NCBI GenBank assembly: GCA_036006885.1
Contig: DASYPG010000162.1
Location: 1 to 50,708, forward strand
Source of the DNA: Burkholderiales bacterium
GTDB taxonomy: Bacteria; Pseudomonadota; Gammaproteobacteria; Burkholderiales; SG8-39
Length of the DNA stretch: 50,708 nucleotides
Direction: 5' to 3'
Each line of letters starts with the position of its first letter. The stretch's first letter is position 1. The translations under genes were made by a program, and so were the position numbers. Positions 6,455 to 42,096 of this stretch are shown piece by piece. The notes below the pieces were generated by a model. It saw only the letters and a program-made list of their open reading frames with translations. It made no database searches and was not told where the DNA came from.

Positions 6455-6461
6455 GCGCTCC

Positions 6462-10530: not shown

Positions 10531-10534
10531 GCGC

Positions 10535-14295: not shown

Positions 14296-14419
14296 GAGTG
14301 TTAACCGTTATGTGCTAATTCCGCGGCGGCCCAATAACCGCTGCGCATCGCGACACCAACTTGATCATCTTACCGCGATGGAGCACGCATGGTCAGATGA
14401 AGCTCAGGAGGAAACAAGC

Positions 14420-15796: not shown

Positions 15797-15812
15797 CCCG
15801 CCCTACTCATCG

Positions 15813-15845
15813 ACCCGCGCCGGGATCCGGCGCGGGTTCTTTCGC
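15813..15845 (+). terminator. Rho-independent terminator candidate after the DUF1111 gene
   Basis: ACCCGCGCCGG-GAT-CCGGCGCGGGT gives a perfect 11-bp GC-rich stem. It is followed by TCTTTC. Confidence 0.6.
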
Positions 15846-15888
15846 TCGGCGAAGTCAACCGGACCGAGTTGCGCTACCTTCTGCTCCC

Positions 15889-23409: not shown

Positions 23410-23512
23410 GTAAGCGCGCGGAGCAATTTCCCGCCGGCGCAGACCGTTTTGCGCCCGGCTGAACGCTTATACCCCTCGCGTGAAATACTACGGACCTGAA
23501 GTTCATTCTGCA

Positions 23513-25801
23513 ATGACATCCTTTCTGCGATCCAGAACGAAGACCGCGTCCCAGGGTATCGGCAAGCCGATTCCACGCAAGGAGGACGAACGCCTGCTGC
23601 GGGGCCAGGGCTGCTATACGGACGACCTCAACCTGCCGCGCCAGGCGTACGCCGGCGTGGTGCGCTCGCCGCATGCACATGCACGGATCCGGAGCATCGA
23701 TACCAGCACCGCGCTGGCCATGCCCGGCGTTCTCGCGGTGCTCACCGGAAATGATGCGGAGCAGGACGGGCTGAAGCCGGTTCCGTTCCGTCCGGTGTCG
23801 CCGAATCCGCACGAAGTCCAGCTGAAGGCCTCGTTCCTCGCCCCGTATCCGCTTCTGCCGCAGGACCGGGCGCGCTTCGTCGGGCAGGCGGTCGCCCTCG
23901 TCGTCGCCGAAAGCGCCATGGCCGCCAAAGACGCCGCCGAGCGCGTGGCGCTGGACTACGAGCCGCTTCCCGCGGTCACCGCCACCCGCGCGGCTGCGGA
24001 AGGGCCGCGTCTGTGGGGCTCGCCCAACACCTGCTCGGACACCACCGTCGGCAATCCGGTGGAGGAGCCGTTCAAGCGCGCGTCTCATGTCGTCACTCTG
24101 GAGACGACGCTGAATCGCGTCACCGGCGTGCCGATGGAGCCGCGGGCGGCGCTCGGGAGCTATGACGAGCAGGCAAAGCGCTACACGGTCTACGCGTCCT
24201 GCGCCGGCCCGCACCGCGCGCGCGCCGAGATCGCGGGCGCGCTCGGCGTGCCCGAAAGCGAGGTGCGCGTGGTCACGCGCGAGCTCGGCGGCAACTACGG
24301 CACGCGCAACAACCTCTACCCCGAGTTCGCGCTCGTGGCATGGGCCGCGCGGCGCCTCGGCCGGCCGGTCAAGTGGACCTGCGAGCGCACCGAGGCGTTC
24401 CTGTCCGACGAGCATGCGCGCGATCTCGTCTCGCGCTCCGAGCTCGCGCTCGACGCAGAGGGCAATTTCCTCGCGATGCGCTGCGATCACGTGAGCAACG
24501 TCGGCGCGCACGCGGTGTCGTTCATCCCCCTGACCAAGGGCATGGCGATCTCGACCAGCGTGTACCGCTTTCCGGCGGCGTCGATTCGCGGTCGCGCCGT
24601 GATGAGCACCACGTCGCCGACCACGCCCTATCGCGCCGCCGGCCGGCCGGAAATGATGTTCATCCTCGAGCGGCTGATCGACATCGCCGCGCGGCGCCAC
24701 GGCTTCGACCGCGTCGAGCTGCGGGAGAGAAACCTCATCCGCAAGGAGGAGCTTCCCTATCGCACCAACACGGGCCTGGTCTACGACAGCGGCGACTACC
24801 TCGGCGTGCAGGCGCGGGCGCTCGAGCTCGCCGACTGGAAAGGGTTCGAGAAGAGGCGGCGGGAATCCCGCGCGCGCGGACGCTGCCGCGGCATCGGTTT
24901 AGGCCACTACGTCGAGCTGAACACCGGCGCGCCGCGCGAGCGCGCCGAGATTCGCGTGCTGCCCGAGCAGCGCGTCGAGGTGGTGCTCGGCACGCTCTCC
25001 GCAGGCCAGGGGCACGAGACGAGCTTCGCCCAGCTCGTCGCCGAATGGCTCGACGTCGATCCCGCCCGGGTGAGGCTCCTGACCGGCGACACCGACCTCA
25101 CGCCGATCGGCGGCGGCTCGCACTCGGGCCGCTCGATGCGCATGGGCGCGGTGGTAATGGCGCACGCCTGCGACCGCATCGTCGAGCAAGGAAAGCAGCG
25201 GGCATCGGAACGTCTCGAAGTTTCTGCAAAAGACTTGGAGTTTGAAAGCGGACGGTTTCGCGTCAAAGGCACCGACCGCTCGGTCGGCCTGTTCGACCTC
25301 GGAACCCTGGTCTCGAGCTACGACGAGACCACGCCGCTGCCGTCCTACCCGTTCGGCTGCGCGGTGTGCGAGGTGGAAGTCGATCCGCAGACCGGGGTGG
25401 TCGAGGTCGTGCGCCACTCCACCGTCGACGACTGCGGGCGGGCGGTGAACCCGCTCATCCTGCACGGGCAGACCCACGGCGGCATCGCCGCGGGCGTCGG
25501 CCAGGCGCTATGGGAGGCGTGCCGCTACGATCCCGAAACCGGGCAGCTCCTGTCCGCGAGCTTCATGGACTACGCCATGCCGCGCGCCGACCAGCTGCCG
25601 ATGTTCGACACCGAGATCAGCGAGATTCCCTCGACCACCAATCCGCTCGGGATGCGCGGCGGCGGCGAAGGCGGCACTACACCGGCGCTAGCCGCGGTCG
25701 CCAACGCGGTGGTGGACGCGCTGGCCGAGTTCGGCGTCGAGCACCTGGACCTGCCGCTCACTCCCGAGCGCGTGTGGCGGGCGATTCACCGGAAGAGCTA
25801 G
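23513..25801 (+). CDS. Xanthine-dehydrogenase-family molybdopterin-binding subunit, CoxL form-II-like; no adjacent Fe-S or FAD subunits
   Basis: IGKPIPRKEDERLLRGQG, PYRAAGRPE loop and C-terminal GMRGGGEGGTTPA. Start ATG 23513 is preferred; GTG 23480 is an alternative. Confidence 0.8.
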   Translation: MTSFLRSRTKTASQGIGKPIPRKEDERLLRGQGCYTDDLNLPRQAYAGVVRSPHAHARIRSIDTSTALAMPGVLAVLTGNDAEQDGLKPVPFRPVSPNPHEVQLKASFLAPYPLLPQDRARFVGQAVALVVAESAMAAKDAAERVALDYEPLPAVTATRAAAEGPRLWGSPNTCSDTTVGNPVEEPFKRASHVVTLETTLNRVTGVPMEPRAALGSYDEQAKRYTVYASCAGPHRARAEIAGALGVPESEVRVVTRELGGNYGTRNNLYPEFALVAWAARRLGRPVKWTCERTEAFLSDEHARDLVSRSELALDAEGNFLAMRCDHVSNVGAHAVSFIPLTKGMAISTSVYRFPAASIRGRAVMSTTSPTTPYRAAGRPEMMFILERLIDIAARRHGFDRVELRERNLIRKEELPYRTNTGLVYDSGDYLGVQARALELADWKGFEKRRRESRARGRCRGIGLGHYVELNTGAPRERAEIRVLPEQRVEVVLGTLSAGQGHETSFAQLVAEWLDVDPARVRLLTGDTDLTPIGGGSHSGRSMRMGAVVMAHACDRIVEQGKQRASERLEVSAKDLEFESGRFRVKGTDRSVGLFDLGTLVSSYDETTPLPSYPFGCAVCEVEVDPQTGVVEVVRHSTVDDCGRAVNPLILHGQTHGGIAAGVGQALWEACRYDPETGQLLSASFMDYAMPRADQLPMFDTEISEIPSTTNPLGMRGGGEGGTTPALAAVANAVVDALAEFGVEHLDLPLTPERVWRAIHRKS

Positions 25802-25825
25802 GAAAGGTCCAAAGAGAAGTCGCTC

Positions 25826-26788
25826 CTAGCGAACGAACTCCAAGGTATAGGCCTTCTTCCAGTCGAGGTTCGCTGGAAGCGCGCCCGCAGCCTGCATCTC
25901 CTTGGTGAAGCGCTCCCAGCGCGCGTCGGTCATGAAGCCGATCCTGCCGCCGGCGGCATCGCCCGAGTCGATCAGGCCGAGGCGCTTCATCTCGCCGTGC
26001 GAGAACTCCATCAGGTCGACTTCCATCTGCGGGTTGTCCTTCTTGATCGCGGCGTGGGCCGCCGCGGGGTTGGCCAGGTAGCCCGCCCAGCCCTCGCGCG
26101 ACGCGCGCACGAAAGCACGCACGACTTCGGGGCGCTCCTTCAGGGTCTTCTCGGTGACGTCGATCGTGGTGGCGTAGTTGGCCCAGCCATAATCCGCGAG
26201 CAGCAGGCTCTGCAGGTTGAGGCCGACCTTGCGCGCGTTCCAGGCGTCGTTCGTCACGAAGCCCTGCTGCGACAGCATCTTGTCGGAGCCCAACGCACCG
26301 TAGCCCGGCTCGAAGCCGCGGATCTGCTCGTCGGTGAAGCCGAACTTGCTTTTCAGCCATGGCCAGTAGTTGGTGCGTGCGATCGCCGGCAGGCGGATCG
26401 GCTTGCCCTTGAGATCCTGCAGCTTGTCGTGGCCCACGCCGGCGTGAGTCACCAGCGTCTGCGGATCCTTCTGGAACACGGCGAACACGGTGACGATCGG
26501 GACGCCCTGCGCCTGGGCGTTCAGCGTGCGCATCGCCGTGCCCATGATGAAATCGGTCTGGCCCGCGGCGAGGAGCTGGTGCACGTTTACCTGCGGACCG
26601 CCGGGCCGCAGCGTGACGTCGAGGCCGTACTTCTCGAAGATGCCGGTGGCCTTGGCGTGGTAGAGGCCGCCGTGCTCGGCCTGCGGGTACCAGTTGAGGG
26701 TGTAGCTCACCGGAGTGAGCTTCTTCTCCTGCGCCCACGCCGCCGTGGCCGTCATGAATGCCAGCGCAATCGAAACCAGGACCTTCAT
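25826..26788 (-). CDS. Periplasmic NMT1/THI5-like (NitT/TauT family) substrate-binding protein, third type (320 aa)
   Basis: Start ATG 26788 (MKVLVSIALAFMTATAAWAQ is a signal peptide). YTLNWYPQAEHGGLYHAKATGIFEKYGLDV. Divergent from the ABC ATPase gene. Confidence 0.8.
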   Translation of the reverse strand: MKVLVSIALAFMTATAAWAQEKKLTPVSYTLNWYPQAEHGGLYHAKATGIFEKYGLDVTLRPGGPQVNVHQLLAAGQTDFIMGTAMRTLNAQAQGVPIVTVFAVFQKDPQTLVTHAGVGHDKLQDLKGKPIRLPAIARTNYWPWLKSKFGFTDEQIRGFEPGYGALGSDKMLSQQGFVTNDAWNARKVGLNLQSLLLADYGWANYATTIDVTEKTLKERPEVVRAFVRASREGWAGYLANPAAAHAAIKKDNPQMEVDLMEFSHGEMKRLGLIDSGDAAGGRIGFMTDARWERFTKEMQAAGALPANLDWKKAYTLEFVR

Positions 26789-26840
26789 CCGCAGCTCCCG
26801 ATGGTTCCGCTCATGGTAAGCACTATACTTCGGCCAATCA

Positions 26841-27626
26841 ATGAGCGACGCATTCGTCGAAGTCGACAAGGTCGACCTCGCCTATGACGAGGTGGGCGGC
26901 AACGCCATCGAGGACGTTTCGCTCTCGATGAAGGAGCACGAGTTCATCGCCATGGTCGGCCCGAGCGGCTGCGGCAAGTCGACCTTCATGAAGCTCTGCT
27001 CCGGGCTGCGGCGCCCCAGCAAGGGTCAGGTGATCGTCGAGGGGCACGAGGTCTCGGGGCCGCTCAAGATCGTCGGCATGGCGTTCCAGAACGCGACCCT
27101 GCTGCCGTGGCGCACTACGCTCGACAACGTGCTGCTGCCGCTCGAGATCGTGCAGCCCTACCGCGCCAGCTTCAAACGCGACAAGGAAAAATACGCGTTG
27201 AAAGCGAAGGAGTTGCTGCACTCCGTCGGGCTGGACGGTTACGAGAACCGTTTCCCGTGGGAGCTCTCGGGCGGGATGCAGCAGCGCGTCTCGATCTGCC
27301 GCGCGCTGGTGCACGAGCCGAAGCTGCTACTGCTCGACGAGCCGTTCGCTGCGCTCGATGCGTTCACCCGTGAGGAGCTGTGGCTGGTGCTGCGCGACCT
27401 GTGGATGCGCAAGCGCTTCACCGTGGTGCTGGTCACGCACGACCTGCGCGAAGCGGCCTTCCTCGCCGATACGGTCTACGTGATGAGCAAGCGTCCCGGC
27501 AGGATCCTCGCGCGGCGCGTGATCGACATTCCGCGGCCGCGTGAGCTCGAGGTCACCTACACCGACAAATTCGTCAGCATCGTGCACGAGCTGCGCGAGC
27601 ACATCGGTCGAATCAGAAAGGCCTGA
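26841..27626 (+). CDS. ABC transporter ATP-binding protein, NitT/TauT (SsuB/TauB/ThiZ-like) family
   Basis: Walker A GPSGCGKST, signature LSGGMQQR and Walker B LLLDEPFAALD. Confidence 0.9.
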   Translation: MSDAFVEVDKVDLAYDEVGGNAIEDVSLSMKEHEFIAMVGPSGCGKSTFMKLCSGLRRPSKGQVIVEGHEVSGPLKIVGMAFQNATLLPWRTTLDNVLLPLEIVQPYRASFKRDKEKYALKAKELLHSVGLDGYENRFPWELSGGMQQRVSICRALVHEPKLLLLDEPFAALDAFTREELWLVLRDLWMRKRFTVVLVTHDLREAAFLADTVYVMSKRPGRILARRVIDIPRPRELEVTYTDKFVSIVHELREHIGRIRKA

Positions 27627-27630
27627 AACC

Positions 27631-28407
27631 GTGGCGGCAAGCCGACGCAGCCTCGAACGCTGGTCACCATGGATGGTGCTCGCGGCGATCCTGATCCTGT
27701 GGGAGCTCGTCTGCCGCGCGTTCCACGTCTCGGACTTCATCTTTCCGTCGCCTTCCGCGATCCTGCTGTCGCTCAGGCAGTACGCCGGCCCGATTTCCGG
27801 CCACGCCCTGCAGACCTTCTGGACCACCATGGCCGGGTTCGCGATCGGCGTCGGGGTCGGCCTGGTGATCGGCGTCATCGTCGGCTCGTCGCGCCTCATG
27901 TACACGGCGCTCTATCCTCTGATGGTCGGGTTCAACAGCATCCCCAAGGCGGCCTTCGTGCCGGTGCTGGTGGTGTGGTTCGGCATCGGCACGGTGCCGG
28001 CGATCCTCACCGCGTTCATCATCTGCTTCTTCCCGATCACGGTGAACGTGGCCACCGGGCTCGCCACCATCGAGCCCGAGCTCGAGGACGTGCTGCGCGC
28101 GCTCGGCGCGAGCCGCATGGACGTGCTCATCAAGGTCGGGCTGCCGCGCTCGCTGCCGTTTTTCTTCGCCTCGTTGAAAGTGGCGATCACGCTCGCCTTC
28201 GTCGGATCGGTGGTGTCGGAGACCGTCGCCGCCAACGAAGGCATCGGCTATCTGATGATGTCGGCCGGATCGCAGATGCGCATGCCGCTGGTGTTCGCCG
28301 GCCTGATCGTCATCAGCGTGATGGCAATGGCCATGTACGCAGTGTTCGCGGTGATGGAGCGGCGCATGACCGGCTGGGCCACCCGCGGGATGGATGCGCG
28401 TGCCTGA
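27631..28407 (+). CDS. ABC transporter permease, NitT/TauT (SsuC/TauC/ThiX-like) family
   Basis: GTG 27631 lies just after the ATPase stop. About six TM segments. EAA-like loop ALGASRMDVLIKVGLPRSLP. Confidence 0.85.
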   Translation: MAASRRSLERWSPWMVLAAILILWELVCRAFHVSDFIFPSPSAILLSLRQYAGPISGHALQTFWTTMAGFAIGVGVGLVIGVIVGSSRLMYTALYPLMVGFNSIPKAAFVPVLVVWFGIGTVPAILTAFIICFFPITVNVATGLATIEPELEDVLRALGASRMDVLIKVGLPRSLPFFFASLKVAITLAFVGSVVSETVAANEGIGYLMMSAGSQMRMPLVFAGLIVISVMAMAMYAVFAVMERRMTGWATRGMDARA

Positions 28408-29740
28408 GATCGGCGACCTGAGAAGCTTCCTCGAGGCGGCGCGCAGGGCCGGCGAGGTTCACGAGATCCGCCGCGAGGTCGATCCGGTGCGCGAGCTCGG
28501 CCGGGTCCTCGCCGCCTGCGAGCGCGCCGGAAAGGCGGCGTACTTCCATGCAGTCAAGGGCTTCGACATCCCCGTGGTCGGCAGCCTGCTCAGCTCGCCG
28601 AAGCGCATCGCGTTGGCTCTGGGATGCGAAGTCGCGCAGATCGGCGAGCGCATGGCCGCTGCCACGGAAAAGCCGATCGCACCCGTCCTTCATCCAGGGA
28701 GGGCGCCGTGCCAGGAGGTCGTGGTGAAGAAACCCGATCTCACCAAATGGCCGATTCCGACCCATTCGCCCCTCGACGCCGGTCCCTTCATTACCGCAGG
28801 AGTGGTGATCGCGCGCGACCCGGAGAGCGGGCGCCACAACCTCTCGTACAACCGCATGCAGATCTACGGCCCGGATCGCGCCGGAGTCAGCATGAACATC
28901 TGGCGCCACATCAAGGCGTTCTTCGACAAAAGGGAACCGCGTGGGGAGAACCTCCCCTTCGCCGTGGCGCTGGGTCCAGATCCGGTGGTGATGATGGCGG
29001 CGGCGTTCCGCTACGACGGCGACGAGTACGAGGTCGCGGGCAGCCTGCGCGGCGCTCCGATCCCGGTGGTAAAGGCGCTCACTTGCGATCTCCTCGTCCC
29101 TGCTTTCTCGGAAATTATCCTGGAAGGCGAGGTGCTCGCCGGCGAGCGGCAGATGGAAGGCCCGATGGCCGAGTTCACCGGCCACTACTCCGGGGCCGAT
29201 CCCAAGCACGTGGCGAAGATCACAGCGATCACGCACCGTGCGAAGCCGATCTTCCAGACCATGAACGGCGGCGGCTACGAGCACGTGAGCCTCGGCAACA
29301 TGATCACGCGCGAGCCGCTGCTCGCGCGCTTCGTGCGCCACATCAGCCCGCGCGTGAGCGCGGTGCACCTGCCGCCCTATGCCGCGGGCTTCACCGCGAT
29401 CGTGGCGCTCAACGATCCCCAGCCCGGCGAGGCGCGCAACGTCGCCATCGCCGCGATGGCGGCGCACGTCAACTTCAAGACCGTGATCGTGGTCGACAGC
29501 GACGTCGACATCTTCGACCCCGCCGACGTGATGTGGGCGCTCGCCACGCGCGTGCGCTGGCACCAGGACGTGGTCCCCATCCCCGGCGCGCACGGCAACG
29601 AGCTCGATCCCAGCACCGAGGAGCACGGCGTCGCCTCCAAGGCGATCATCGATGCGACGCTGCCGCCGGAGAAGCATAAGCGCTACGTCAAGGTGGCGTA
29701 CCCGCCCGTCGACCTGGAACGCTACCTGAAGGGAAATTGA
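28394..29740 (+). CDS. UbiD-family (prFMN-dependent) decarboxylase, paralog 1 (about 446-448 aa)
   Basis: DLRSFLEAARRAGEV N-terminus, HNLSYNRMQ and EGPMAEFTGHYS. It overlaps the permease 3' end. The start is ATG 28394 or GTG 28400. Confidence 0.85.
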   Translation: MRVPEIGDLRSFLEAARRAGEVHEIRREVDPVRELGRVLAACERAGKAAYFHAVKGFDIPVVGSLLSSPKRIALALGCEVAQIGERMAAATEKPIAPVLHPGRAPCQEVVVKKPDLTKWPIPTHSPLDAGPFITAGVVIARDPESGRHNLSYNRMQIYGPDRAGVSMNIWRHIKAFFDKREPRGENLPFAVALGPDPVVMMAAAFRYDGDEYEVAGSLRGAPIPVVKALTCDLLVPAFSEIILEGEVLAGERQMEGPMAEFTGHYSGADPKHVAKITAITHRAKPIFQTMNGGGYEHVSLGNMITREPLLARFVRHISPRVSAVHLPPYAAGFTAIVALNDPQPGEARNVAIAAMAAHVNFKTVIVVDSDVDIFDPADVMWALATRVRWHQDVVPIPGAHGNELDPSTEEHGVASKAIIDATLPPEKHKRYVKVAYPPVDLERYLKGN

Positions 29741-29750
29741 GCCTGGATCG

Positions 29751-31154
29751 ATGCGCACGCTGATCGAGGACCTCGAGTTCGTCCTGACCGCCGACCGGGA
29801 CGAGCGGGTTCTGCGCAATGCCTCGGTCGTGATCGAGAACGACCGCATCGCGGACCTGGACTCCCGCGAGGAAATCGCCCGGCAGCATCCGAAGCGGTCT
29901 TTCGACAAGGTCATCGACGGCAGGCGCTACGGCATGACGCCCGGGTTCATCGATTCGCACGTGCATCTGGGCGAGACGCTGTCGCGCGCGGTGTTTCCGG
30001 ACCAGCTGCCGACGACGGACTGGGTGCTGAACTGGGCGAAGCCGTTTTACGCCCACACCGACGCGCGCGACGAGGTGGTCGGCTCGACGCTCGCAATGGC
30101 CGAGATGCTACGCTGCGGCACGACCTGCTTCCTCGACATGGGCGCGCACAACGACGTCGCCGGCGTGGTCGGCGCAATTGATCGCGTCGGCATGCGCGGC
30201 ATCACCGGGCGCCATGCCGCCGACGTGCGCCCAGCCGTGGCGCCGGAAGGCTGGACCGAGGAAATGCTCGCGCACCACTACTTTCCCGACTCCAGGACCG
30301 CTTTGCGAGAGCTCGAGCACGTAGTCAAGGACTTCAACGGCGCCGCGCGGGGACGCGTCCGCGCCTGGGTGAACATCGAGGGCAAGGAGCCGTCCTCCAG
30401 CCTGGAGCTGCACCTCGGAGCGCGTGCGCTCGCGGAAAAGCTCGGCGTCGGCACGACCTATCACCTCGCCACTTCCAGCGAAGAGGCCAGGGCCTGCGCG
30501 GAGAGATTCGAGACCACGCCGGTCAAGCGCGTCGCGCAGAACGGCGGCCTCGGCGCCAACCTCGTGATCGCGCACGCCGTCGCCGTGACGCCCGAGGAGA
30601 TCGAGCTCATGGCGCGCGCGGGGACCAAGGTGGCGTTCTGCCCCGCGGCTTCGATCAAGCTCGGCAAGGGCGCGACGCGCATCGGCCGGTATCCGGAGAT
30701 GCTCGAGGCCGGCATGCGGGTCGGCGTCGGCACCGACGGCGTTTCGGCGGGCGGCAACTTGAGCCTGATGCGCCAGATGTACCTGGTGGCCGGGATGTTC
30801 AAGGATGCGCGCATGGACTCCACCGTGCTCGGCGCCGCCAAGGCCTCGCGCATGGCGACCATCGAGGCGGCCGAGCTCCTCGGCTGGCAGGACGAAATCG
30901 GCTCGCTCGAGCCGGGCAAGAAGGCCGACTTCGTGCTGTTCGACCTCGACCACTTCGAATGGGTGCCCTACGGCGACCCGCTGCAGGCGCTGGTGTACTC
31001 GGCGAGCCCGGCGTCGATCGCGCAGACCTGGGTCGACGGCCGCGCGCTCTATCGAGACGGCTGGGTGCAAACGCTCGACGAGAAGAGCCTGCACGCCGAA
31101 GCACGCGAACGCGCCGTGGCCATCGTCAAGCGCGCCGGGCTGGCTCGAAAATAA
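29751..31154 (+). CDS. Amidohydrolase, TRZ/ATZ (chlorohydrolase/deaminase-like) subgroup (467 aa)
   Basis: HxH (PGFIDSHVHLGE), TTYHLATSSEE, IAHAV and GVGTDGVS. Confidence 0.8.
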   Translation: MRTLIEDLEFVLTADRDERVLRNASVVIENDRIADLDSREEIARQHPKRSFDKVIDGRRYGMTPGFIDSHVHLGETLSRAVFPDQLPTTDWVLNWAKPFYAHTDARDEVVGSTLAMAEMLRCGTTCFLDMGAHNDVAGVVGAIDRVGMRGITGRHAADVRPAVAPEGWTEEMLAHHYFPDSRTALRELEHVVKDFNGAARGRVRAWVNIEGKEPSSSLELHLGARALAEKLGVGTTYHLATSSEEARACAERFETTPVKRVAQNGGLGANLVIAHAVAVTPEEIELMARAGTKVAFCPAASIKLGKGATRIGRYPEMLEAGMRVGVGTDGVSAGGNLSLMRQMYLVAGMFKDARMDSTVLGAAKASRMATIEAAELLGWQDEIGSLEPGKKADFVLFDLDHFEWVPYGDPLQALVYSASPASIAQTWVDGRALYRDGWVQTLDEKSLHAEARERAVAIVKRAGLARK

Positions 31155-31287
31155 ATGGTGACTGTCGCCGTTTTTTAGTACAGTTTCGGCGTGAGTAGAA
31201 GCGGTCAGCCGGGCCGCCTCGGGTGACATGAGGTAACTGCGCTCGGTCGGAAATTGCTCACCCCCTTCCGTCCTGACCGGAGCATCA

Positions 31288-32142
31288 ATGATCATCGATT
31301 TGAGCTGCTATCCAACCCAGGTGGTCGACACCGCCTGGCGGCACGACGGCGATCCCTTCACGGGCGAGCGCCTGCTCAAGATGATGGACGGCCCGTACTA
31401 CGTGAACGGCAAGCCGCGCCGCATCGACAAGGCGTTCATCCAGCCGCCGCAGGGCAATACGCTGCACCACTTCACCAACGACCACCTCGACCATCGCGAG
31501 GGCATCCGCGCCTACATGGCCTACACGGTCGAGCTGGTGAAGAAGTATCCGGACCGCTTCATCGGCTGCTTCGTCTACAACCCGCGCTATGGGATCCGGG
31601 AAGGCGTCGAGGAGTTCGAGCGGCACGTGAAGGAATTCGGCTTCAAGATGCTGCAGCTCAACGCCAACATGCACGCGTACCGGCCGGATCGCGCCAAGGA
31701 CTGGGTGCGCCCCGTGCTGAGGAAGGCGGAAGAGCTCGGGATCCTGGTCAAGCTCCATACCGGCGACGGCCCGTACAGTATTCCCACCGAGTGGGTGCCG
31801 CTCATCAAGGAGTTCCCGAGGGTCGATTTCATCATGGCGCATTTCGGCGTGCAGACCGGCGGGGTGTATTGCTTCGAGGCGTTCCAGTGGGCGATGGAGC
31901 TCGCCAACGTCTACTGCGAGTCGGGATGGTGCCTGCAGTCGCGCATCGTCGAGTTCGCGAAGGACCTGCCCAAGCACAAGATCCTCTTCGGCTCGGACAC
32001 GCCGCCGAACGAGCCCGGCATGTGGATCCGGCTCCTCGAGGTGCTGTGCATGGAGCCGCCGCAGGGCATGAACCTCGACGAGGATACGCTCGAGGGCTAT
32101 CTCGGCAATAACACGGCCCGGATGATCGGTCTGAAAACATGA
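31288..32142 (+). CDS. PF04909-type (ACMSD/LigI-like, amidohydrolase-2) protein, copy A, N-terminal HxH motif degenerate (284 aa)
   Basis: GGAG RBS. The N-terminus reads MIIDLSCYP where copy B has MIIDTHLHP. The later ligand positions are kept (KLHTGDG, MAHFG, FGSDTP). Confidence 0.7.
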   Translation: MIIDLSCYPTQVVDTAWRHDGDPFTGERLLKMMDGPYYVNGKPRRIDKAFIQPPQGNTLHHFTNDHLDHREGIRAYMAYTVELVKKYPDRFIGCFVYNPRYGIREGVEEFERHVKEFGFKMLQLNANMHAYRPDRAKDWVRPVLRKAEELGILVKLHTGDGPYSIPTEWVPLIKEFPRVDFIMAHFGVQTGGVYCFEAFQWAMELANVYCESGWCLQSRIVEFAKDLPKHKILFGSDTPPNEPGMWIRLLEVLCMEPPQGMNLDEDTLEGYLGNNTARMIGLKT

Positions 32143-33056
32143 TTATCGACACGCACCTGCACCCCACGAACCTGGTCGACGAGGCCTGGCGCCATACCGG
32201 TACGCCGTTCAACGGCGAGCGCATGCTCAAGCTCATGGACGGCCCGTACATGATCAACGGCAAGCCGCGCCGCATCGACATGGGATTCATCCAGCCGCCG
32301 CCGGGCAACACCGTGCACCGCATCGGCGGCGGCACCGGCCGCCAGGGCATCCGCGACTACATGGCCTACTGCGCCGAGCTGACGCAGCGTTATCCCGACC
32401 GCTTCATCGGCGACTTCAACTTCAACCCGCGCTTCGGGCCCGAGGAAGGCGCGCTCGAGCTCGAGTTCCACGTCAAGGAGTACGGCTTCAAGATGCTGAA
32501 GCTGCACTCCAACATGCACAACTACCGCCCCGACCGCGCGCTCGACTGGCTGCGCCCGGCGATGAAGATGTGCGCGAAGTACAACGTGGTGGTGCTGATC
32601 CACACCGGCGACGGCCCCTACAGCATCCCGACCCAGTTCTACCCGGTGATCCGCGAGTTTCCGATGGTGAACTTCATCATCGGGCACTTCGGTATCCAGA
32701 CCGGGGGCAACTATTCGTTCGAGGCGTTCTGGATGGCGATGGACACACCGAACGTGGTGTGCGAGTCGGGCTGGACATTCCAGTCGCGCATCGTCGAGTT
32801 CGCGCGCGAGCTGCCGCGGCACAAGATTGTCTTCGGCACCGACTCGCCGCCGAACGAGCCAGGCATGTGGCTGCGCGAGCTCGAAGTGCTGTGCGGTCCG
32901 CCGCCGCAGGGGATGAACCTCGACGAGGACGGACTCGAGGACTACATGGGCAACAACATCGCCCGCCTGTGCGGCATCAGGACCACGCCGCCGCCGCGCA
33001 ACATGGACGAAGCCAAGGCGCGCCTCAAGGACAGCTACGCGGGAGTGCCAAAATAG
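32139..33056 (+). CDS. PF04909-type (ACMSD/LigI-like, amidohydrolase-2) protein, copy B, motifs intact (305 aa)
   Basis: ATGA overlap with copy A. Motifs IIDTHLHP, LIHTGDG, IGHFG and FGTDSP. Roughly 60% identical to copy A by eye. Confidence 0.75.
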   Translation: MIIDTHLHPTNLVDEAWRHTGTPFNGERMLKLMDGPYMINGKPRRIDMGFIQPPPGNTVHRIGGGTGRQGIRDYMAYCAELTQRYPDRFIGDFNFNPRFGPEEGALELEFHVKEYGFKMLKLHSNMHNYRPDRALDWLRPAMKMCAKYNVVVLIHTGDGPYSIPTQFYPVIREFPMVNFIIGHFGIQTGGNYSFEAFWMAMDTPNVVCESGWTFQSRIVEFARELPRHKIVFGTDSPPNEPGMWLRELEVLCGPPPQGMNLDEDGLEDYMGNNIARLCGIRTTPPPRNMDEAKARLKDSYAGVPK

Positions 33057-34396
33057 AGCAGGACTTCCATCGCTTCCTCGAGCGCTACCGCGCCGAGCAC
33101 GCCGACGACGTTCTGGTCCTGGATGACGAGGTGGCCGCCGACCAGGAAGTCACCGCGGTCCTGTGGACGCTCGCGGCGCAGGGACGCGATCCGATGCTCG
33201 TATTCGAGCGGGTCGGCGGCACCAAGGTCGTCACTGGCATTTTCTCCTCGCGCCAGCGCATTGCGCGCCTGCTCGGTACCGACGTTGCCAACCTCCATAA
33301 GACCTATCAGGAAAGGGCGCGCAAAGCGGTCGACCCGAAGGTCGTTTCCACTGGGCCGATCCTGGGTTCGGTGGAAGAAAAAGTCGATCTGACCAAGCTG
33401 CCGCTGCTGCGGCATTTCGAGACCGACAAGGCGCCCTACATCACCAACGGCATCGTCGTGTGCGAAGGATCAACCGCCTTCAGCGGAAACCTGAGCTACC
33501 ACCGCGCGATGCTGCACTCGAAGAGCGAGCTCGCCACGAGCCTGCATTCGCGCGGGCATCTCTGGCGCCTACTGGAGATGGCGCGGGAGCGGAAGAAGCC
33601 GCTGCCGGTAGCGATGGTGATCGGTGCGCATCCGCTTTTCATGCTGGCGGCCTCGGCCAGGGTGGGCTTCGGCGCCGACGAGCGGCGCATTGCCGGAGGG
33701 CTCTTGGGTTCTCCTCTCGAGGTCATCAAGACGCCGAAGTACCAGATTGCGGTGCCGGCGGCGGCGGAGTTCGTGCTCGAAGGGCTCATCGACCCCGATG
33801 CCAAGGTCGACGAGGGGCCGTTCGGCGAGTTCACCGGCTATTCCTCGAGCCGCACGACCAACAATCTGTTCCGCGTCGAAACGCTCATGCGCCGCAAGGA
33901 TGCGATCCTGGTCGACGTCGCGGGCGGCAACGCCGCCGAGCACCTGAATCTCTCCCGGGTGCCGCGCGAATCCGAGATGGCCGAGAAGCTGATGGAGCGC
34001 TTCCCGGGCGTCACGGCGCTGCACTATCCGAACTCGGGGGTGCACTTCCACGCCTATGTGGCGCTGCGCGCGCGCCGCGAGGGGGAGGCGCGGCAGGTGA
34101 TGCTGGGGCTGCTCGGCTGGGATCCCTATCTCAAGACCGTGATCGCGGTCGACGACGACATCGATCTCGCCGACGACTCGCAGGTCATGTGGGCGCTCGC
34201 GACGCATTTCCAGCCGCACCGCGACGTCGTGATCATCGACGGCCTTCCCGGCAACGCGCTCGACCCGTCGGCATCGAGCGTCGGCACCACCTCGCGCATG
34301 GGGCTCGACGCCACGCGCGGGCCAAATTTCGAAGGCGTGCGCGCGAGAGTGTCCGAGGCGGCGCTGGCCCGCGCCAGGAAGATCCTCAAGACCTAG
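33053..34396 (+). CDS. UbiD-family decarboxylase, paralog 2; 5' end unresolved (no canonical start; apparent -1 frame break at an A4 run)
   Basis: UbiD homology begins at IEQDFHRFLERY (33053 onward); EGPFGEFTGYSS is present. The only in-frame canonical start upstream is GTG 32969; the next one downstream would delete the conserved N-terminus. Confidence 0.7.
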   Translation: MEQDFHRFLERYRAEHADDVLVLDDEVAADQEVTAVLWTLAAQGRDPMLVFERVGGTKVVTGIFSSRQRIARLLGTDVANLHKTYQERARKAVDPKVVSTGPILGSVEEKVDLTKLPLLRHFETDKAPYITNGIVVCEGSTAFSGNLSYHRAMLHSKSELATSLHSRGHLWRLLEMARERKKPLPVAMVIGAHPLFMLAASARVGFGADERRIAGGLLGSPLEVIKTPKYQIAVPAAAEFVLEGLIDPDAKVDEGPFGEFTGYSSSRTTNNLFRVETLMRRKDAILVDVAGGNAAEHLNLSRVPRESEMAEKLMERFPGVTALHYPNSGVHFHAYVALRARREGEARQVMLGLLGWDPYLKTVIAVDDDIDLADDSQVMWALATHFQPHRDVVIIDGLPGNALDPSASSVGTTSRMGLDATRGPNFEGVRARVSEAALARARKILKT

Positions 34397-35373
34397 GTCA
34401 GGCAGCTTCGCAGGCCGCGGTCGAGCTCGCTCTTCTCCAGGTTGCGGCCGATGAACACGAGCTTGCTCACCGGCTCCTCCCGGCCCCACGCGTCGGCGGC
34501 ACGCAGGTCCGTGATGCGGTGGACGCCTTGCAGCACGTAGCGGCGCGGCTCGTCTCTGAAGGCGAGGATGCCTTTGAACCGGAAGATGTCGTCGCCCTTG
34601 TCCTCGACGAGTTTCCTGACGTAACCCTCGAGGCGCTCGCGGTCGAAGGGTTGCTCGAAGACGAAAGACTCCGACTCGAGCGAGGGGTCGTGCTGGTGCT
34701 CGTGGGCATCGAGGAAGTCCGGCGCGATCGCCATCGTCTGCGCGACGCTGAAGGCGCCGATGCCGAGAATCTCGTCGAGCCGCACCTTGGCATGGCTCGA
34801 GCGGAGGATCGGCGCGGTGGCGTTGAGCTGCCGCAATCGTTTCTCGACCCCCGGTAATTCCTTTTCCGGGAGCAAGTCGATCTTGTTCAGGATGATGCGG
34901 TCGGCGATCACGATCTGGTCGAGCGCCTGGTTGTCGTGGCGCTGCAGGCTCGGGTCGTCGAGGTGGCCGCCGATGTGCTTCGCGTCGACCAGCGTGACGA
35001 TGGCGTCGAGGCTCACCTGCCTCGCCACCTCGGTGTCGACGAAGAAGGTGGCCGCGACCGGCGTGGGATCGGCCAGGCCGCTCGTCTCGACCAGGATGTG
35101 GTCGAACTTCTCGCGCCGCTTCATCAGGTCCTGCAGGATGCGCAAGAGATCCGCGCGCGCAGAGCCGACGCAGCACACGCAGCCGTTGGTGAGCTCGAAG
35201 ATCTCCTCATCGGCCGACACGATCAGGTCCGAGTCGATGTTGATTTCGCCGAACTCGTTCTCGATCACCGCGATGCGGTGGCCGTGCTTCTGGGTAAGGA
35301 TGTAATTGAGCAGCGTGGTCTTTCCCGAGCCCAGAAAGCCGGTGAGGATGGTCACCGGAACTGCGGTTTGCAT
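34393..35373 (-). CDS. COG0523 / CobW-type G3E GTPase with His-rich insert (326 aa)
   Basis: ILTGFLGSGKTTLLN, GCVCC, VETSGLADP, LNKIDL and a His-rich stretch DAHEHQHD. The start overlaps the stop of the Mo subunit by 1 nt. Confidence 0.9.
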   Translation of the reverse strand: MQTAVPVTILTGFLGSGKTTLLNYILTQKHGHRIAVIENEFGEINIDSDLIVSADEEIFELTNGCVCCVGSARADLLRILQDLMKRREKFDHILVETSGLADPTPVAATFFVDTEVARQVSLDAIVTLVDAKHIGGHLDDPSLQRHDNQALDQIVIADRIILNKIDLLPEKELPGVEKRLRQLNATAPILRSSHAKVRLDEILGIGAFSVAQTMAIAPDFLDAHEHQHDPSLESESFVFEQPFDRERLEGYVRKLVEDKGDDIFRFKGILAFRDEPRRYVLQGVHRITDLRAADAWGREEPVSKLVFIGRNLEKSELDRGLRSCLT

Positions 35374-37640
35374 CAGTGCTTTTCTTTCTGTCTCAGGCCG
35401 TTCAAGACATCTTCCGGCGTGATCGGGTAATGGCGGAAGCGCACGCCGATTGCGTTGTACACCGCGTTGGCGATCGCAGGCCCGATGGCGATGATCGGAT
35501 CCTCGCCCACGCCCTTCGCGCCGAACGGACCGCCGGGATCGGGCGCGGTTTCGAGAAGGATGGTGCGGATCGGCGGCATGTCCATGGAGAGCGGCATCTT
35601 GTAGTCGACGAAGCCGGCGTTGAGCGAGCGGCCGGTCTGCGGGTCGATGACGTAGTCCTCGGTCAGCATGTGGCCGATGCCCTGCTGGATGCCGCCCTCG
35701 ATCTGGCCCGCCGCGGCCACCGGATGGATCACCCTTCCGATCTCGTGCACCGGAATCACCTGCAGCACGTCGATCTGCCCGGTCTCGGTATCGACCTGCA
35801 CCTCCACGAAGTGCGCCGCGAACGAATACGACTTGGTCGGCTTGTAGGTCGCCGAGGCGATGAGCTGAGGAGTCGGCAGCCCCAGCTTCGGGCCGACGGC
35901 ATCCCGCACGCTGATGCGGCGATCAGAGCCTTTGACGCTGACGATTCCTTGTCGGACTTCCAAATCTTGAGCAGAAGCTTCGAGGGCTTCGGCTGCAATC
36001 GCGAGCATCCGCTTCTTCACCTCGGCGGCCGCCATCTGCGCGGCGCGCCCGCCCATGTACGTGGTGTGGCTCGCGAACGCGCCGATGTCCCAGGGCACGA
36101 CGTCGGTATCGCCGTGTACCACCGACACGTCCTCGAAGCGCAGGCCGAGTTCCTCGGCCACCACCTGCGCGAGCGCGGTGTGGGCTCCCGTGCCGAGGCC
36201 GGTCGTGCCGGTGAAAAGCTGCGCAGTGCCGTCGTCGTTCATGCGCACCGTCGCGTTTCCCTGCTCCTTGATTCCCGGATACGCGCTCGAGCCGTGCATC
36301 TCGCAGCCCATGCCCCAGCCGCGGCGCAGGGGTTTTTCGGAAGAAGCGAGGTGAGGCCGATTTCGTTTCTTCCAGTCAGTCTCGAGAATGCCGCGACGAA
36401 TGCAGTCCTCCAGCCCATGTCCAACGATGGGATGCCCCGAAGGCGATAAGTCGCCCTCACGCACGGCGTTCCTGAGCTTCAGCTCGGCCGGGTCCATGCC
36501 CAGCTTCTCGGCCGCCTCGTCCATCTGGATGTCGAGCGCGTAGTAGGTCTGCACCACGCCATAGCCGCGGTAGGCGCCCGCGATGGGCGTGTTGGTGTAG
36601 ACCGCGCTTCCCTCGAGCAGCACGTTGTCGCAGCGATAGAGCGACGTGAGCGCCGTCGTGCCGACCGCGGTCACGCCGGGCGCGTGCGAGCCATAGGCGC
36701 CGGAATTGAACGTGATGCGCGCCTGGCGCGCGGTGATCGTGCCGTCACTCCTGAAGCCCTGCTTAAGCCACACCGTCCCCGGATGGCGCGAGCGGCCGCC
36801 GAGGAACGTCTCCTTGCGCGTGAACTCCATGCGCACCGGACGGCCGGTCTTCTTCGCGAGCAGCGCGCACAGGAATTCGCTCTGGAAGAGATCCTGCTTG
36901 GCGCCGAAACCGCCGCCCATGTGGTCGACCAGCACGCGCACCTTGGTAAGCGGCAGCCCCAGCACTTCGGCGAGGATGCCGCGCACCATGAACGGCGTCT
37001 GCGTCGAGATCCACATCGTGAGCCGTTCCTCGCTCCACTGCGACACGCACACGTTCGGCTCCATGTACGCCGGCGTCGGCCGGCCCATCGTGTAGGTGCC
37101 CTCGAGGATGACGTCGGCCTCCCCGAAGCCTTCTTCGACGTCTCCTCGCCTGACCGTAACTGGATCGACCACCAGATTGTCGTTGCGCAGGTCGTGGATC
37201 TTGACCGAGGAAGACAACGCCTGGTCCACGCTCAGAAGCGCAGGCAGCTCCTCGTATTCCACTTCGATGAGATCGAGCGCCTCCTCGGCGATCTCCTCGC
37301 TGACGGCCGCGACCACGGCGACGCTCTCGCCCCAGTAGCGCACCTTGCTGTCGAGGATGTACTGGTCCCTCGTCACCGACGCCGAGCGCGGGTGCGGCGA
37401 GCCGTAGTGCAGTACGCGCGGCACGTCGTGGTGGGTGAGCACCGCCTTGACGCCGTCATAGGCGAGCGCCCGGGTCGCGTCGATTCGCTTGATTCGCGCG
37501 TGGGCGACGTTGCTGCGCTTGGTCTTGGCGTGCAGCATGCCCGGCAGGCTGAGATCGCCGGCGTACTGCGCGCGCCCGCTTACCTTGCCCGGCATGTCCG
37601 GCCGGCGCTGGCTCTCCCCGACGACGGCGAGCTTGCTCAT
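35373..37640 (-). CDS. Molybdenum hydroxylase large (molybdopterin-binding) subunit, xanthine dehydrogenase / aldehyde oxidase family (755 aa)
   Basis: Start ATG 37640 (MSKLAVVGESQRRPDMPGKVSGRAQYAGD). Motifs GAYRGYG and GPFGAKGVGEDP. ATGA overlap with the Fe-S subunit gene. Confidence 0.9.
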   Translation of the reverse strand: MSKLAVVGESQRRPDMPGKVSGRAQYAGDLSLPGMLHAKTKRSNVAHARIKRIDATRALAYDGVKAVLTHHDVPRVLHYGSPHPRSASVTRDQYILDSKVRYWGESVAVVAAVSEEIAEEALDLIEVEYEELPALLSVDQALSSSVKIHDLRNDNLVVDPVTVRRGDVEEGFGEADVILEGTYTMGRPTPAYMEPNVCVSQWSEERLTMWISTQTPFMVRGILAEVLGLPLTKVRVLVDHMGGGFGAKQDLFQSEFLCALLAKKTGRPVRMEFTRKETFLGGRSRHPGTVWLKQGFRSDGTITARQARITFNSGAYGSHAPGVTAVGTTALTSLYRCDNVLLEGSAVYTNTPIAGAYRGYGVVQTYYALDIQMDEAAEKLGMDPAELKLRNAVREGDLSPSGHPIVGHGLEDCIRRGILETDWKKRNRPHLASSEKPLRRGWGMGCEMHGSSAYPGIKEQGNATVRMNDDGTAQLFTGTTGLGTGAHTALAQVVAEELGLRFEDVSVVHGDTDVVPWDIGAFASHTTYMGGRAAQMAAAEVKKRMLAIAAEALEASAQDLEVRQGIVSVKGSDRRISVRDAVGPKLGLPTPQLIASATYKPTKSYSFAAHFVEVQVDTETGQIDVLQVIPVHEIGRVIHPVAAAGQIEGGIQQGIGHMLTEDYVIDPQTGRSLNAGFVDYKMPLSMDMPPIRTILLETAPDPGGPFGAKGVGEDPIIAIGPAIANAVYNAIGVRFRHYPITPEDVLNGLRQKEKH

Positions 37641-38089
37641 TTCCTCATCTCCTCGGCTGCCGCCTGGATCGCCTCGACGATCTTCGTGTACCCGGTGCAG
37701 CGGCAGATGTTGCCGGCGATGCCGAAGCGGATCTCGTCCTCGCTCGGGTTCGGGTTCTCGTCGAGCAGCGCCTTGGCCATCACGATCATCCCGGGCGTGC
37801 AGAAACCGCACTGCGCACCGCCGAGCCGGATGAACTGCTCCTGCAATGGATGCTCGATTCCTTCGATCGTGACCACCTCGTGGCCGTCGGCCTCGACCCC
37901 GAGCATGAGGCACGAATTGAGCGGCTTGCCGTCCACCAGCACCGTGCAGGCGCCGCAGTCGCCCACGTCGCAGCCCTTCTTCGTGCCGGTCAGGCCGGCC
38001 TCGTTGCGCAACGCGTCGAGGAGGCTGCGCCAGGGCTCGAGCTCCAGCTCGCGCTTCTCGCCGTTGAGCGTAAGGGAGATCTTCTTCAC
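37637..38089 (-). CDS. (2Fe-2S)-binding small subunit of molybdenum hydroxylase (150 aa)
   Basis: CDVGDCGACTV, GAQCGFCTPG and NICRCTGY. Confidence 0.95.
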   Translation of the reverse strand: MKKISLTLNGEKRELELEPWRSLLDALRNEAGLTGTKKGCDVGDCGACTVLVDGKPLNSCLMLGVEADGHEVVTIEGIEHPLQEQFIRLGGAQCGFCTPGMIVMAKALLDENPNPSEDEIRFGIAGNICRCTGYTKIVEAIQAAAEEMRK

Positions 38090-40623: not shown

Positions 40624-40639
40624 CGTGCGCCCGGCGAAA

Positions 40640-40670
40640 TGTCAACAAGTCGGCTCCAATTTTGTTGACA
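40640..40670. promoter_or_regulatory. Inverted repeat TGTCAACAA-N13-TTGTTGACA in the GntR / xdhA divergent region (candidate operator with embedded -35-like hexamers)
   Basis: Perfect 9-bp arms at 40640-40648 and 40662-40670. Each arm contains TTGACA facing outward. TACCCT lies 18 nt downstream of the right hexamer. Confidence 0.45.
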
Positions 40671-40706
40671 ATCCGTGCCCGGCCCCCCTACCCTGTCCGG
40701 CAGGAC

Positions 40707-42095: not shown

Positions 42096-42096
42096 C

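Follow-up and report, generated by a model that had tools for sequence, protein, structure and literature searches.

What does a gene block do that brackets three amidohydrolase-superfamily genes between two UbiD-type decarboxylase genes and joins them to an ABC importer? The block spans positions 26841-34396 of contig DASYPG010000162.1, from a Burkholderiales metagenome-assembled genome (MAG), and we analysed this contig over its full length (the window: 50,708 bp, 67% G+C). A sequence-only reading had taken the block for a single, wholly uncharacterised module processing heteroaromatic acids. We found that its right half corresponds to a lumazine/pterin-to-xanthine pathway published in 2025: from orthology and diagnostic residues, the twin PF04909 proteins are almost certainly the alpha and beta subunits of 6,7-dihydroxylumazine isomerase (DHLI), UbiD-2 the decarboxylase XCDC, and the neighbouring CobW GTPase and molybdenum enzyme (LuDH) members of the same pathway. 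The ABC importer, the other UbiD (UbiD-1) and the amidohydrolase AH1 match no characterised pathway. What is new is the module of UbiD-1, importer, an orphan molybdenum subunit (Mo0) and an oxygenase, together with the loss of UbiX, NCS2 transporters and the pterin deaminase from the cluster. Taken as a whole, the locus is probably a lumazine/pterin-to-xanthine core with a lineage-specific accessory front end for decorated pteridines. Gene families were assigned from an open reading frame (ORF) listing with Pfam and NCBIfam scans, sequence searches against the PDB, tblastn and a neighbour-joining tree.

Work on Alcaligenes faecalis in the 1960s gave the first view of the enzymology of this pathway. 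The route itself was characterised in Cupriavidus sp. LA-1 by Doi, Maeda & Takaya (Commun Biol 2025; PMC12391406). In LA-1, the lumazine-induced cluster I encodes the molybdenum-dependent lumazine dehydrogenase LuDH (LA1_0145-0147), the alpha2beta2 "amidohydrolase 2" isomerase DHLI (LA1_0152/0151, respectively alpha and beta), which converts 6,7-dihydroxylumazine to xanthine-8-carboxylate, the UbiD-family xanthine-8-carboxylate decarboxylase XCDC (LA1_0150), served by the UbiX LA1_0144, a GTP-binding protein (LA1_0143) that raises the solubility and activity of DHLI, a pterin deaminase (PDA, LA1_0140) and two purine/pyrimidine transporters (PMC12391406). The GTPase is invariably found with DHLI beta, whose putative Zn ligands are His6, His8 and Asp235; alpha, 65% similar to beta, lacks the two histidines and is non-catalytic but required (PMC12391406). 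Deaminase and xanthine oxidoreductase types differ among lineages, and E2, the constitutive lumazine/xanthine-oxidising enzyme of LA-1, belongs to the COX group (PMC12391406). A literature search for UbiD enzymes acting on pterins or xanthine-8-carboxylate turned up this paper alone.

The genes of the window that we assign to this pathway are the following (coordinates, strand, identity and the basis of the call).

31288-32142 (+): predicted DHLI alpha (PF04909-A), non-catalytic subunit; Pfam PF04909, Ser6 and Tyr8
32139-33056 (+): predicted DHLI beta (PF04909-B), catalytic Zn-dependent subunit; Pfam PF04909, His6, His8 and Asp235
33053-34396 (+): UbiD-2, predicted XCDC, start codon uncertain; Pfam UbiD domains and orthology to isolate proteins
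34393-35373 (-): CobW/G3E GTPase, likely a Zn-insertion or folding helper for DHLI; Pfam cobW and CobW_C
35373-37640 (-): LuDH-type molybdenum subunit; Pfam MoCoBD_1/2
37637-38089 (-): LuDH-type [2Fe-2S] subunit; Pfam Fer2_2 and Fer2
38086-38940 (-): LuDH-type FAD subunit; Pfam FAD_binding_5 and CO_deh_flav_C

When the whole block was searched by blastn against plasmid and chromid sequences, the matches were confined to PF04909-A, PF04909-B and UbiD-2, at about 76% nucleotide identity, from Cupriavidus, Burkholderia, Ensifer, Shinella and Paracoccus. In an annotated Ensifer plasmid, the trio forms part of a set made up of a LysR regulator, an NCS2 transporter, the FAD, Fe-S and molybdenum subunits of a xanthine dehydrogenase (XDH), a GTP-binding protein, two amidohydrolases, a UbiD, a UbiX and XdhC, which indicates that the conserved unit is the PF04909 pair with UbiD-2, CobW and a three-subunit molybdenum enzyme, and not the seven co-directional genes. 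A Cupriavidus campinensis replicon carries, in the order of LA-1 cluster I, alpha, beta, UbiD, NCS2, FAD, Fe-S and molybdenum subunits, UbiX and GTPase, followed further on by NCS2 and PDA. Identities between the window and C. campinensis were 77% for alpha, 84% for beta, 66% for UbiD-2 and 57% for the GTPase, and for LuDH 69% (molybdenum subunit), 70% (Fe-S) and 63% (FAD). Across the isolate clusters, alpha is 75-77% identical to its counterpart from the leading PF04909 gene (Cupriavidus, Burkholderia and Ensifer), beta 83-84% to its counterparts, UbiD-2 62-66% to the UbiD encoded next after DHLI beta (Cupriavidus, Ensifer and Burkholderia), the GTPase 49-57% to the cluster GTPases, and the molybdenum subunit 67% to that of the Ensifer cluster. 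In the neighbour-joining tree, UbiD-2 joins the isolate XCDC-type proteins, separately from UbiD-1 and HmfF.

The subunit signatures agree with these assignments. Beta begins with MIIDTHLHP, which contains His6 and His8, and has Asp235; alpha begins with MIIDLSCYP, with Ser6 and Tyr8 in place of the two Zn-binding histidines. The two proteins are 64% identical in the window, and the same pattern of a beta with and an alpha without the histidines was seen in all related loci that we fetched. A PDB sequence search with beta gave no relative. In three MAG loci (L006, L008 and L010), DHLI beta occurs without alpha and lies directly between UbiD-1 and XCDC; loss of alpha has been reported for Actinomycetota only, and alpha is essential in LA-1 (PMC12391406).

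The alpha and beta genes overlap by 4 nt. UbiD-2 has no ATG, GTG or TTG in frame at its conserved N-terminus: the candidates are an ATA at 33053, 7 nt past a Shine-Dalgarno-like GGGAG, a GTG at 32969, which entails an 88-nt overlap with DHLI beta, and a GTG at 33131, which entails the loss of 26 conserved residues. The missing canonical start could reflect a non-canonical start or an assembly error. Converging on UbiD-2 from the other strand is a tightly overlapping operon (34393-40623, minus strand) of GntR, a Pfam-less ORF, the FAD, Fe-S and molybdenum subunits and CobW. The gene of the molybdenum subunit overlaps both neighbours, the Fe-S stop with its ATG at 37640 and, by a single nucleotide, the CobW start with its stop codon; at this latter junction LA-1 and C. 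campinensis carry ubiX.

These data bear on the idea that all seven genes form one uncharacterised pathway, in which the PF04909 proteins would be non-oxidative decarboxylases or lactonases and the bracketing UbiDs equivalent steps. The genes are indeed co-directional with small gaps, and the PF04909 family does include decarboxylases and lactonases. The pair nevertheless bears the exact DHLI alpha/beta signature, is 77-84% identical to proteins from clusters of lumazine-degrading genera and, in isolates, travels with UbiD-2, CobW and LuDH rather than with UbiD-1 or AH1. Signature and orthology together point to an isomerase of one catalytic and one non-catalytic subunit, contrary to the decarboxylase or lactonase roles proposed from the sequence alone. 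The orthology results largely refute a single seven-gene pathway, which we regard as highly improbable.

Of what the sequence-only reading had described, the families and layout held up: in the ORF listing and the Pfam and NCBIfam scans we found the seven co-directional genes and a divergent NMT1-fold binding protein, with two UbiD paralogs of equal size (both about 448 aa) bracketing the amidohydrolase-superfamily genes and the block lying between three XDH-family molybdenum hydroxylases (23480-25801; 35373-38940 on the minus strand; XdhABC at 40599-45091). Its view that N-heterocyclic acids are processed here still stands; that of one wholly uncharacterised pathway does not, the right half being the LA-1 pathway. 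For that half, its claim to know of no characterised pathway of this composition has been overtaken, as twin PF04909 proteins with a UbiD were characterised in 2025 (PMC12391406), and three of the seven to eight genes have orthologs in this known pathway. The unit boundaries also move, the known pathway continuing at 34393-38940 on the other strand and the left module reaching upstream to about 18886. The full gene order recurs in one other locus (L007); isolate plasmids and chromids matched the block only over its alpha-beta-UbiD-2 part.

Compared with LA-1 cluster I, the window shares the alpha-beta-UbiD order, the beta signature, the His-less alpha, the CobW-type GTPase, the three-subunit molybdenum dehydrogenase and, nearby, conventional xanthine catabolism. 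It differs in lacking UbiX, NCS2 transporters (none in the cluster) and a PDA ortholog, in a Pfam-less gene inserted ahead of the FAD subunit, and in being fused to an NMT1-type importer, an HmfF-like UbiD-1, Mo0, a 2-oxoglutarate (2OG) oxygenase and two TRZ/ATZ amidohydrolases. These additional genes are:

18886-20403 (-): AH1b, TRZ/ATZ-type amidohydrolase, candidate pteridine deaminase; Pfam Amidohydro_1
20403-21413 (-): SBP3, secreted NMT1-fold substrate-binding protein; Pfam NMT1 (7e-39), signal-peptide-like N-terminus
21410-22414 (-): SBP2, secreted NMT1-fold substrate-binding protein; Pfam NMT1
22411-23409 (-): 2-oxoglutarate/Fe(II) oxygenase, DIOX_N type; Pfam DIOX_N and 2OG-FeII_Oxy
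23480-25801 (+): Mo0, orphan CoxL-type molybdenum hydroxylase large subunit; Pfam MoCoBD_1/2
25826-26788 (-): SBP1, secreted NMT1-fold binding protein, divergent from the importer operon; Pfam NMT1 (7e-32)
26841-27626 (+): ABC importer ATPase; Pfam ABC_tran
27631-28407 (+): ABC importer permease; Pfam BPD_transp_1
28394-29740 (+): UbiD-1, HmfF-like decarboxylase of the prenylated flavin mononucleotide (prFMN) type; Pfam UbiD_N, UbiD and UbiD_C
29751-31154 (+): AH1, TRZ/ATZ-type amidohydrolase, role uncertain; Pfam Amidohydro_1

The permease starts with a GTG 4 nt past the ATPase stop, UbiD-1 overlaps the end of the permease by 14 nt, and gaps of 10 nt and 133 nt separate UbiD-1 from AH1 and AH1 from DHLI alpha. 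A promoter and terminator scan of 25700-35500 gave no signal above shuffled expectation.

To which family does UbiD-1 belong? Both UbiDs exceed the TIGR00148 cut-off of 245 bits (UbiD-1 343, UbiD-2 293), and they are 34% identical to each other. The closest PDB entry to UbiD-1 is 6H6V, PtHmfF, the 2,5-furandicarboxylate (FDCA) decarboxylase of Pelotomaculum (E 1.7e-89), and its JGI product name is 2,5-furandicarboxylate decarboxylase. In hmf clusters, HmfF is the 2,5-furandicarboxylate decarboxylase and HmfG its UbiX. On isolate replicons, UbiD-1 comes closest to HmfF from canonical hmfF-hmfG-hmfH clusters, with identities of about 41%, and the value of about 41% with Cupriavidus necator HmfF is not ortholog-level. 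The tree places UbiD-1 as a sister clade of HmfF and not nested inside it. Hundreds of metagenomic sequences are 77-95% identical to UbiD-1, and the nearest full-length relatives in a representative library of 1.84 billion proteins then fall to 45-46%, so that UbiD-1 forms a tight, discrete subfamily.

The equivalents of PtHmfF N147, R152, E210, E254, E259, H296 and R304 are invariant in the UbiD-1 and XCDC groups. We take the N...R, E and EGPxxE positions, from their roles in Fdc1 and UbiD, to be cofactor/metal and acid-base residues, and with these conserved UbiD-1 looks catalytically competent. By contrast, the position of PtHmfF Arg331, an arginine in Cupriavidus HmfF too, holds Gly throughout UbiD-1 and His throughout XCDC. 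No hmfG (UbiX), hmfH (GMC oxidase) or hmfR was found near UbiD-1 in the window or the MAG loci, and an hmf context is present in L037. UbiD-1 as HmfF itself was rejected on identity, gene context and Arg331. The two do share length, three-domain architecture and the catalytic N/R/E/E/H/R positions; a side-chain oxidase and a molybdenum hydroxylase lie nearby both in hmf clusters (e.g., on C. necator pENH92) and in UbiD-1 loci; and the chemistry of HmfF, which acts on a carboxylate alpha to a ring heteroatom, resembles by analogy the one that we propose for UbiD-1. They differ in identity (only about 41-46%), in the Gly at Arg331 and in neighbours, UbiD-1 standing beside an ABC importer and genes of the pteridine route.

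What ties UbiD-1 to the lumazine route is its gene neighbourhood. Within the window's UbiD-1 clade, DHLI and/or XCDC lie within 10 kb in 13 genome loci and 3 further metagenome/MAG contigs, and the only loci of the clade without them are those whose contigs end too soon. Six arrangements were seen: importer-UbiD-1-AH1-alpha-beta-XCDC (the window and L007); importer-UbiD-1-beta-XCDC; importer-UbiD-1-one gene-alpha-beta-XCDC; importer-UbiD-1-Rieske/VanA_C-binding protein-AH1b, with alpha-beta further on; alpha-beta-XCDC-UbiD-1; and UbiD-1-Mo0, with alpha-beta-XCDC further on. Linkage kept through six gene arrangements argues for a functional tie between UbiD-1 and the lumazine route. ATPase, permease and UbiD-1 form a conserved run, with the ATPase and permease at 81-92% identity, and recurrent companions are NMT1 binding proteins, Mo0 (62-91%) and the 2OG oxygenase (74-93%). 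Other oxidases stand beside UbiD-1 or its importer in L004 (Rieske/VanA_C) and L034 (FAD_binding_4). Mining the gaps beside UbiD-1 for ORFs in the other loci turned up no further gene that recurs.

In five loci (L012, L013, L016, L017 and L025), XCDC directly adjoins a co-directional UbiD-1, which would suit a UbiD-1 acting at the same step as UbiD-2, either as its partner subunit, as a second xanthine-8-carboxylate decarboxylase, or as a guanine-8-carboxylate decarboxylase of a parallel pterin branch. The catalytic residues are kept in both proteins, and both show distant NCBIfam similarity to phenylphosphate carboxylase subunits, an enzyme with two UbiD-like subunits that offers a parallel for two divergent UbiD paralogs in one locus. 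The parallel is limited, since the NCBIfam scores of both UbiDs are far below cut-off, and the Pfam scans identified no small phenylphosphate carboxylase subunits. LA-1 XCDC, moreover, works alone as an active homohexamer needing only the UbiX-made cofactor, and LA-1 DHLI does not accept 6,7-dihydroxypterin (PMC12391406). Isolate lumazine-degradation clusters do without UbiD-1, and UbiD-1 is joined to the importer operon more often than to XCDC. A shared step is thus distinctly improbable.

UbiD-1, importer and amidohydrolase could also form a separate pathway for a different (di)carboxylate, aromatic or heteroaromatic (an FDCA-like compound, say, or a pyridine or pyrazine acid), that merely shares the catabolic island with the lumazine genes, and perhaps shares their prFMN or molybdenum-cofactor supply. 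The HmfF-like character of UbiD-1 and its database name fit such a pathway, as do the 133-nt gap between AH1 and DHLI alpha and the unrelated contexts of AH1 orthologs. So does a sister sub-clade of UbiD-1 (L009, L014, L015, L020 and L028), which is 78-81% identical and has the same aligned active-site residues: in the two loci inspected (L020 and L028), a TctC binding protein always follows and no pteridine genes were seen. The neighbours there (L033, which equals L020, and L038/L039, which equal L028) include a CoA-ligase, an acyl-CoA dehydrogenase, a Rieske dioxygenase, a cupin and aromatic-acid genes, that is, a different and likewise uncharacterised acid-decarboxylation context. Against a separate pathway, UbiD-1 stays within 10 kb of DHLI/XCDC through the six rearrangements, sometimes adjoining XCDC or beta, as chance co-location would not be expected to produce; and its identity to true HmfF is no more than about 41%, without hmfG or hmfH nearby and with Gly for Arg331. 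We therefore consider it unlikely, and return to the accessory front end as our preferred reading.

The other accessory genes bear on what such a front end could handle. The importer has the three parts of an NMT1/THI5-fold, SsuA/TauA-like system (secreted NMT1-fold protein, BPD_transp_1 permease and ABC ATPase), but no equivalog model that would predict its substrate reached cut-off; the ATPase has NCBIfam matches of the taurine/nitrate/sulfonate type, all below cut-off. Three secreted NMT1 binding proteins surround this single ATPase/permease pair, with mutual identities of 24-41% (39-41% for SBP2 against SBP3), and three divergent binding proteins for one translocator suggest several related ligands. 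The pyrimidine-ligand precedent of the NMT1/THI5/ThiY fold, raised from the sequence alone, survives as a lead and not as evidence: the remote PDB relatives of SBP1 are THI5 and ThiY, the latter (3IX1, 7e-12) being the only liganded structural relative. SBP1 orthologs (82-94%) adjoin ATPase-permease-UbiD-1. SBP2, which starts with a GTG at 22414 after GAGGGGG, has orthologs (71-85%) in UbiD-1 loci.

Mo0 has its best NCBIfam matches among glyceraldehyde dehydrogenase and carbon monoxide dehydrogenase types, all below cut-off, and is 30% identical to the LuDH-like molybdenum subunit. Genes for Fe-S and FAD subunits are lacking beside it, and the small subunits of LuDH may serve it instead. Its orthologs (62-91%) lie beside UbiD-1 in many MAG loci. 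The 2OG oxygenase, with orthologs (74-93%) in L004-L011, matches 9OVH best in the PDB (1.7e-67), compared with 4e-39 for thymine dioxygenase. Thymine salvage, with this oxygenase as thymine-7-hydroxylase and PF04909 as isoorotate decarboxylase, was rejected because the PF04909 pair is assigned to DHLI and the best PDB relative of the oxygenase is not thymine dioxygenase.

Which of the two amidohydrolases might act as a deaminase? The HxxE motif is typical of deaminases among cog0402 (TRZ/ATZ) amidohydrolases. AH1 and AH1b share fold and HxH metal motif with pterin, isoxanthopterin and 8-oxoguanine deaminases, and AH1b has HLLE, aligned with HLSE of the Cupriavidus PDA ortholog. Its NCBIfam deaminase-type matches are below cut-off, and its orthologs (71-72%) lie near UbiD-1 in L004, L005, L007 and L018. 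As AH1b keeps HxxE and AH1 does not, the deaminase step is better assigned to AH1b, although the case for it is still weak. AH1 itself matches 2PAJ, an isoxanthopterin deaminase, only at 6e-16, and no NCBIfam equivalog reaches cut-off for it. A position between UbiD-1 and DHLI was seen for AH1 in the window and its sister MAG alone. AH1 as an ortholog of the LA-1-type pterin deaminase was rejected, given 28% identity to the PDA ortholog and its own orthologs in other contexts.

Several observations weigh against the pteridine front end or the core on which it would feed. The main caution is the sister sub-clade: with the same residues in a TctC/aromatic-acid context, the substrate of UbiD-1 need not be a pteridine. 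Among 185,579 species-representative genomes, the close relatives of UbiD-1 are all uncultured MAGs, nearly all Burkholderiales. AH1 has HLAT where HxxE is expected, as do its orthologs, which occur at 71-78% identity in unrelated contexts (in Pandoraea and on another part of a MAG contig). The window holds no ortholog of the LA1_0140-type pterin deaminase, the best matches to the Cupriavidus PDA ortholog being AH1 (28%) and AH1b (33% over half its length); PDA orthologs (52-54%) are present in MAG loci L008, L016 and L029. XCDC needs prFMN, and, as the sequence-only reading had already observed, there is no UbiX in the window: the Pfam scans gave no PF02441, and tblastn with Ensifer UbiX gave no match at E<=1e-3. 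By Pfam and tblastn, UbiX is likewise missing from all MAG loci and present in L001-L003; a ubiX gene likely lies elsewhere in the genome. Finally, orthology to the LA-1 enzymes rests on the Cupriavidus proxy and the diagnostic residues.

Put together as a route, and following orthology and the published biochemistry, LuDH would convert lumazine via 7-hydroxylumazine to 6,7-dihydroxylumazine; DHLI, as an alpha2beta2 enzyme aided by CobW in metal loading or folding, would contract the pyrazine ring to give xanthine-8-carboxylate; UbiD-2 would decarboxylate this to xanthine; and XdhABC, PuuD and OHCU decarboxylase would carry xanthine on to allantoin. The prFMN of both UbiDs would have to be supplied by a ubiX gene elsewhere in the genome. 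Upstream of this core, the ABC importer with its three NMT1 proteins, UbiD-1, Mo0, the 2OG oxygenase and the two TRZ/ATZ amidohydrolases would make up the accessory front end. The odds seem to us evenly balanced that this set imports carboxy-, alkyl- or amino-substituted pteridines and trims them to lumazine or 7-hydroxylumazine. Hydroxylation of the ring, or oxidation of one of its substituents to a carboxylate, would fall to the oxygenases and Mo0, with the 2OG oxygenase contributing side-chain oxidation or demethylation; UbiD-1 would strip the pyrazine-ring carboxylate, and a TRZ/ATZ enzyme would take off the 2-amino group. The logic would be akin to that of the hmf pathway, where side-chain oxidation is followed by UbiD decarboxylation and then by molybdenum hydroxylation.

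More tentative is the identity of the substrate, for which a pteridine carboxylate such as pterin-6-carboxylate or its 7-oxo form is one possibility. Pterin-6-carboxylate is what photo-oxidation of folates and biopterin leaves as a stable end product. It is attractive for that reason and because the removal of pterin C6 side chains is known only by chemical routes; the breakdown of some pterins was left unexplained by the authors of the LA-1 study (PMC12391406). Just as tentatively, UbiD-1 might be the first enzymatic pteridine-carboxylate decarboxylase which, with the importer, Mo0 and an oxidase, strips the C6/C7 side chains of folate-, biopterin- and pigment-derived pteridines; hydroxymethyl or formyl groups would pass through carboxyl to H, and the products would enter the lumazine-to-xanthine pathway.

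The genes between CobW-LuDH and the far side of the xanthine dehydrogenase complete the right part of the locus.

38934-39929 (-): 331-aa protein without Pfam match, within the GntR-LuDH operon
39922-40623 (-): GntR/FCD regulator heading the LuDH operon; Pfam GntR and FCD
40599-45091 (+): XdhA/XdhB conventional xanthine dehydrogenase and XdhC chaperone; Pfam

The 331-aa ORF overlaps its neighbours at both ends and is without a match in Pfam, NCBIfam or the PDB. Of its 357 homologs, some are labelled 'xylose isomerase' by NCBI, and those at 63% in Cupriavidus alkaliphilus (L040) and Paracoccus aerodenitrificans (L041) lie within Ndm-like methylxanthine N-demethylase clusters, alongside Rieske/VanA_C oxygenases, a reductase, a GST, a Xan_ur_permease, a Zn-dependent alcohol dehydrogenase and an esterase. 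It seems to represent a family not yet recognised, with a link to xanthine- or pteridine-type catabolism. Past XdhABC, the Pfam and NCBIfam scans gave an amidase, a PuuD-type urate oxidase and OHCU decarboxylase, and by the Pfam scans the contig around the block is a purine/N-heterocycle island. Towards the other end of the contig, LysR regulators and two RidA genes flank a block at 5744-12378 that encodes two isochorismatase-family proteins, an 884-aa aconitase-family protein, a protein of the phosphoenolpyruvate mutase/isocitrate lyase family, an NMT1-like protein and another 2OG oxygenase of the DIOX_N type; at 14066-17049 (+), a 415-aa ORF without Pfam or NCBIfam match comes after a gene for a di-haem oxidoreductase (DHOR).

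In annotation, the generic "amidohydrolase" and "UbiD family" labels can now give way to specific names, DHLI alpha/beta for the two PF04909 genes and XCDC for UbiD-2. In a rearranged form that lacks UbiX and NCS2, the pathway occurs in uncultured Burkholderiales that are abundant in soil. Testable candidate genes for an enzymatic pteridine front end come from this contig and about 16 relatives of it, namely a new UbiD subfamily resembling HmfF, a dedicated importer served by three binding proteins, a molybdenum subunit without partner genes and side-chain oxidases. If the proposal is true, the UbiD-1 route would provide a biological means of removing side chains from pteridines, a step now attributed only to abiotic chemistry.

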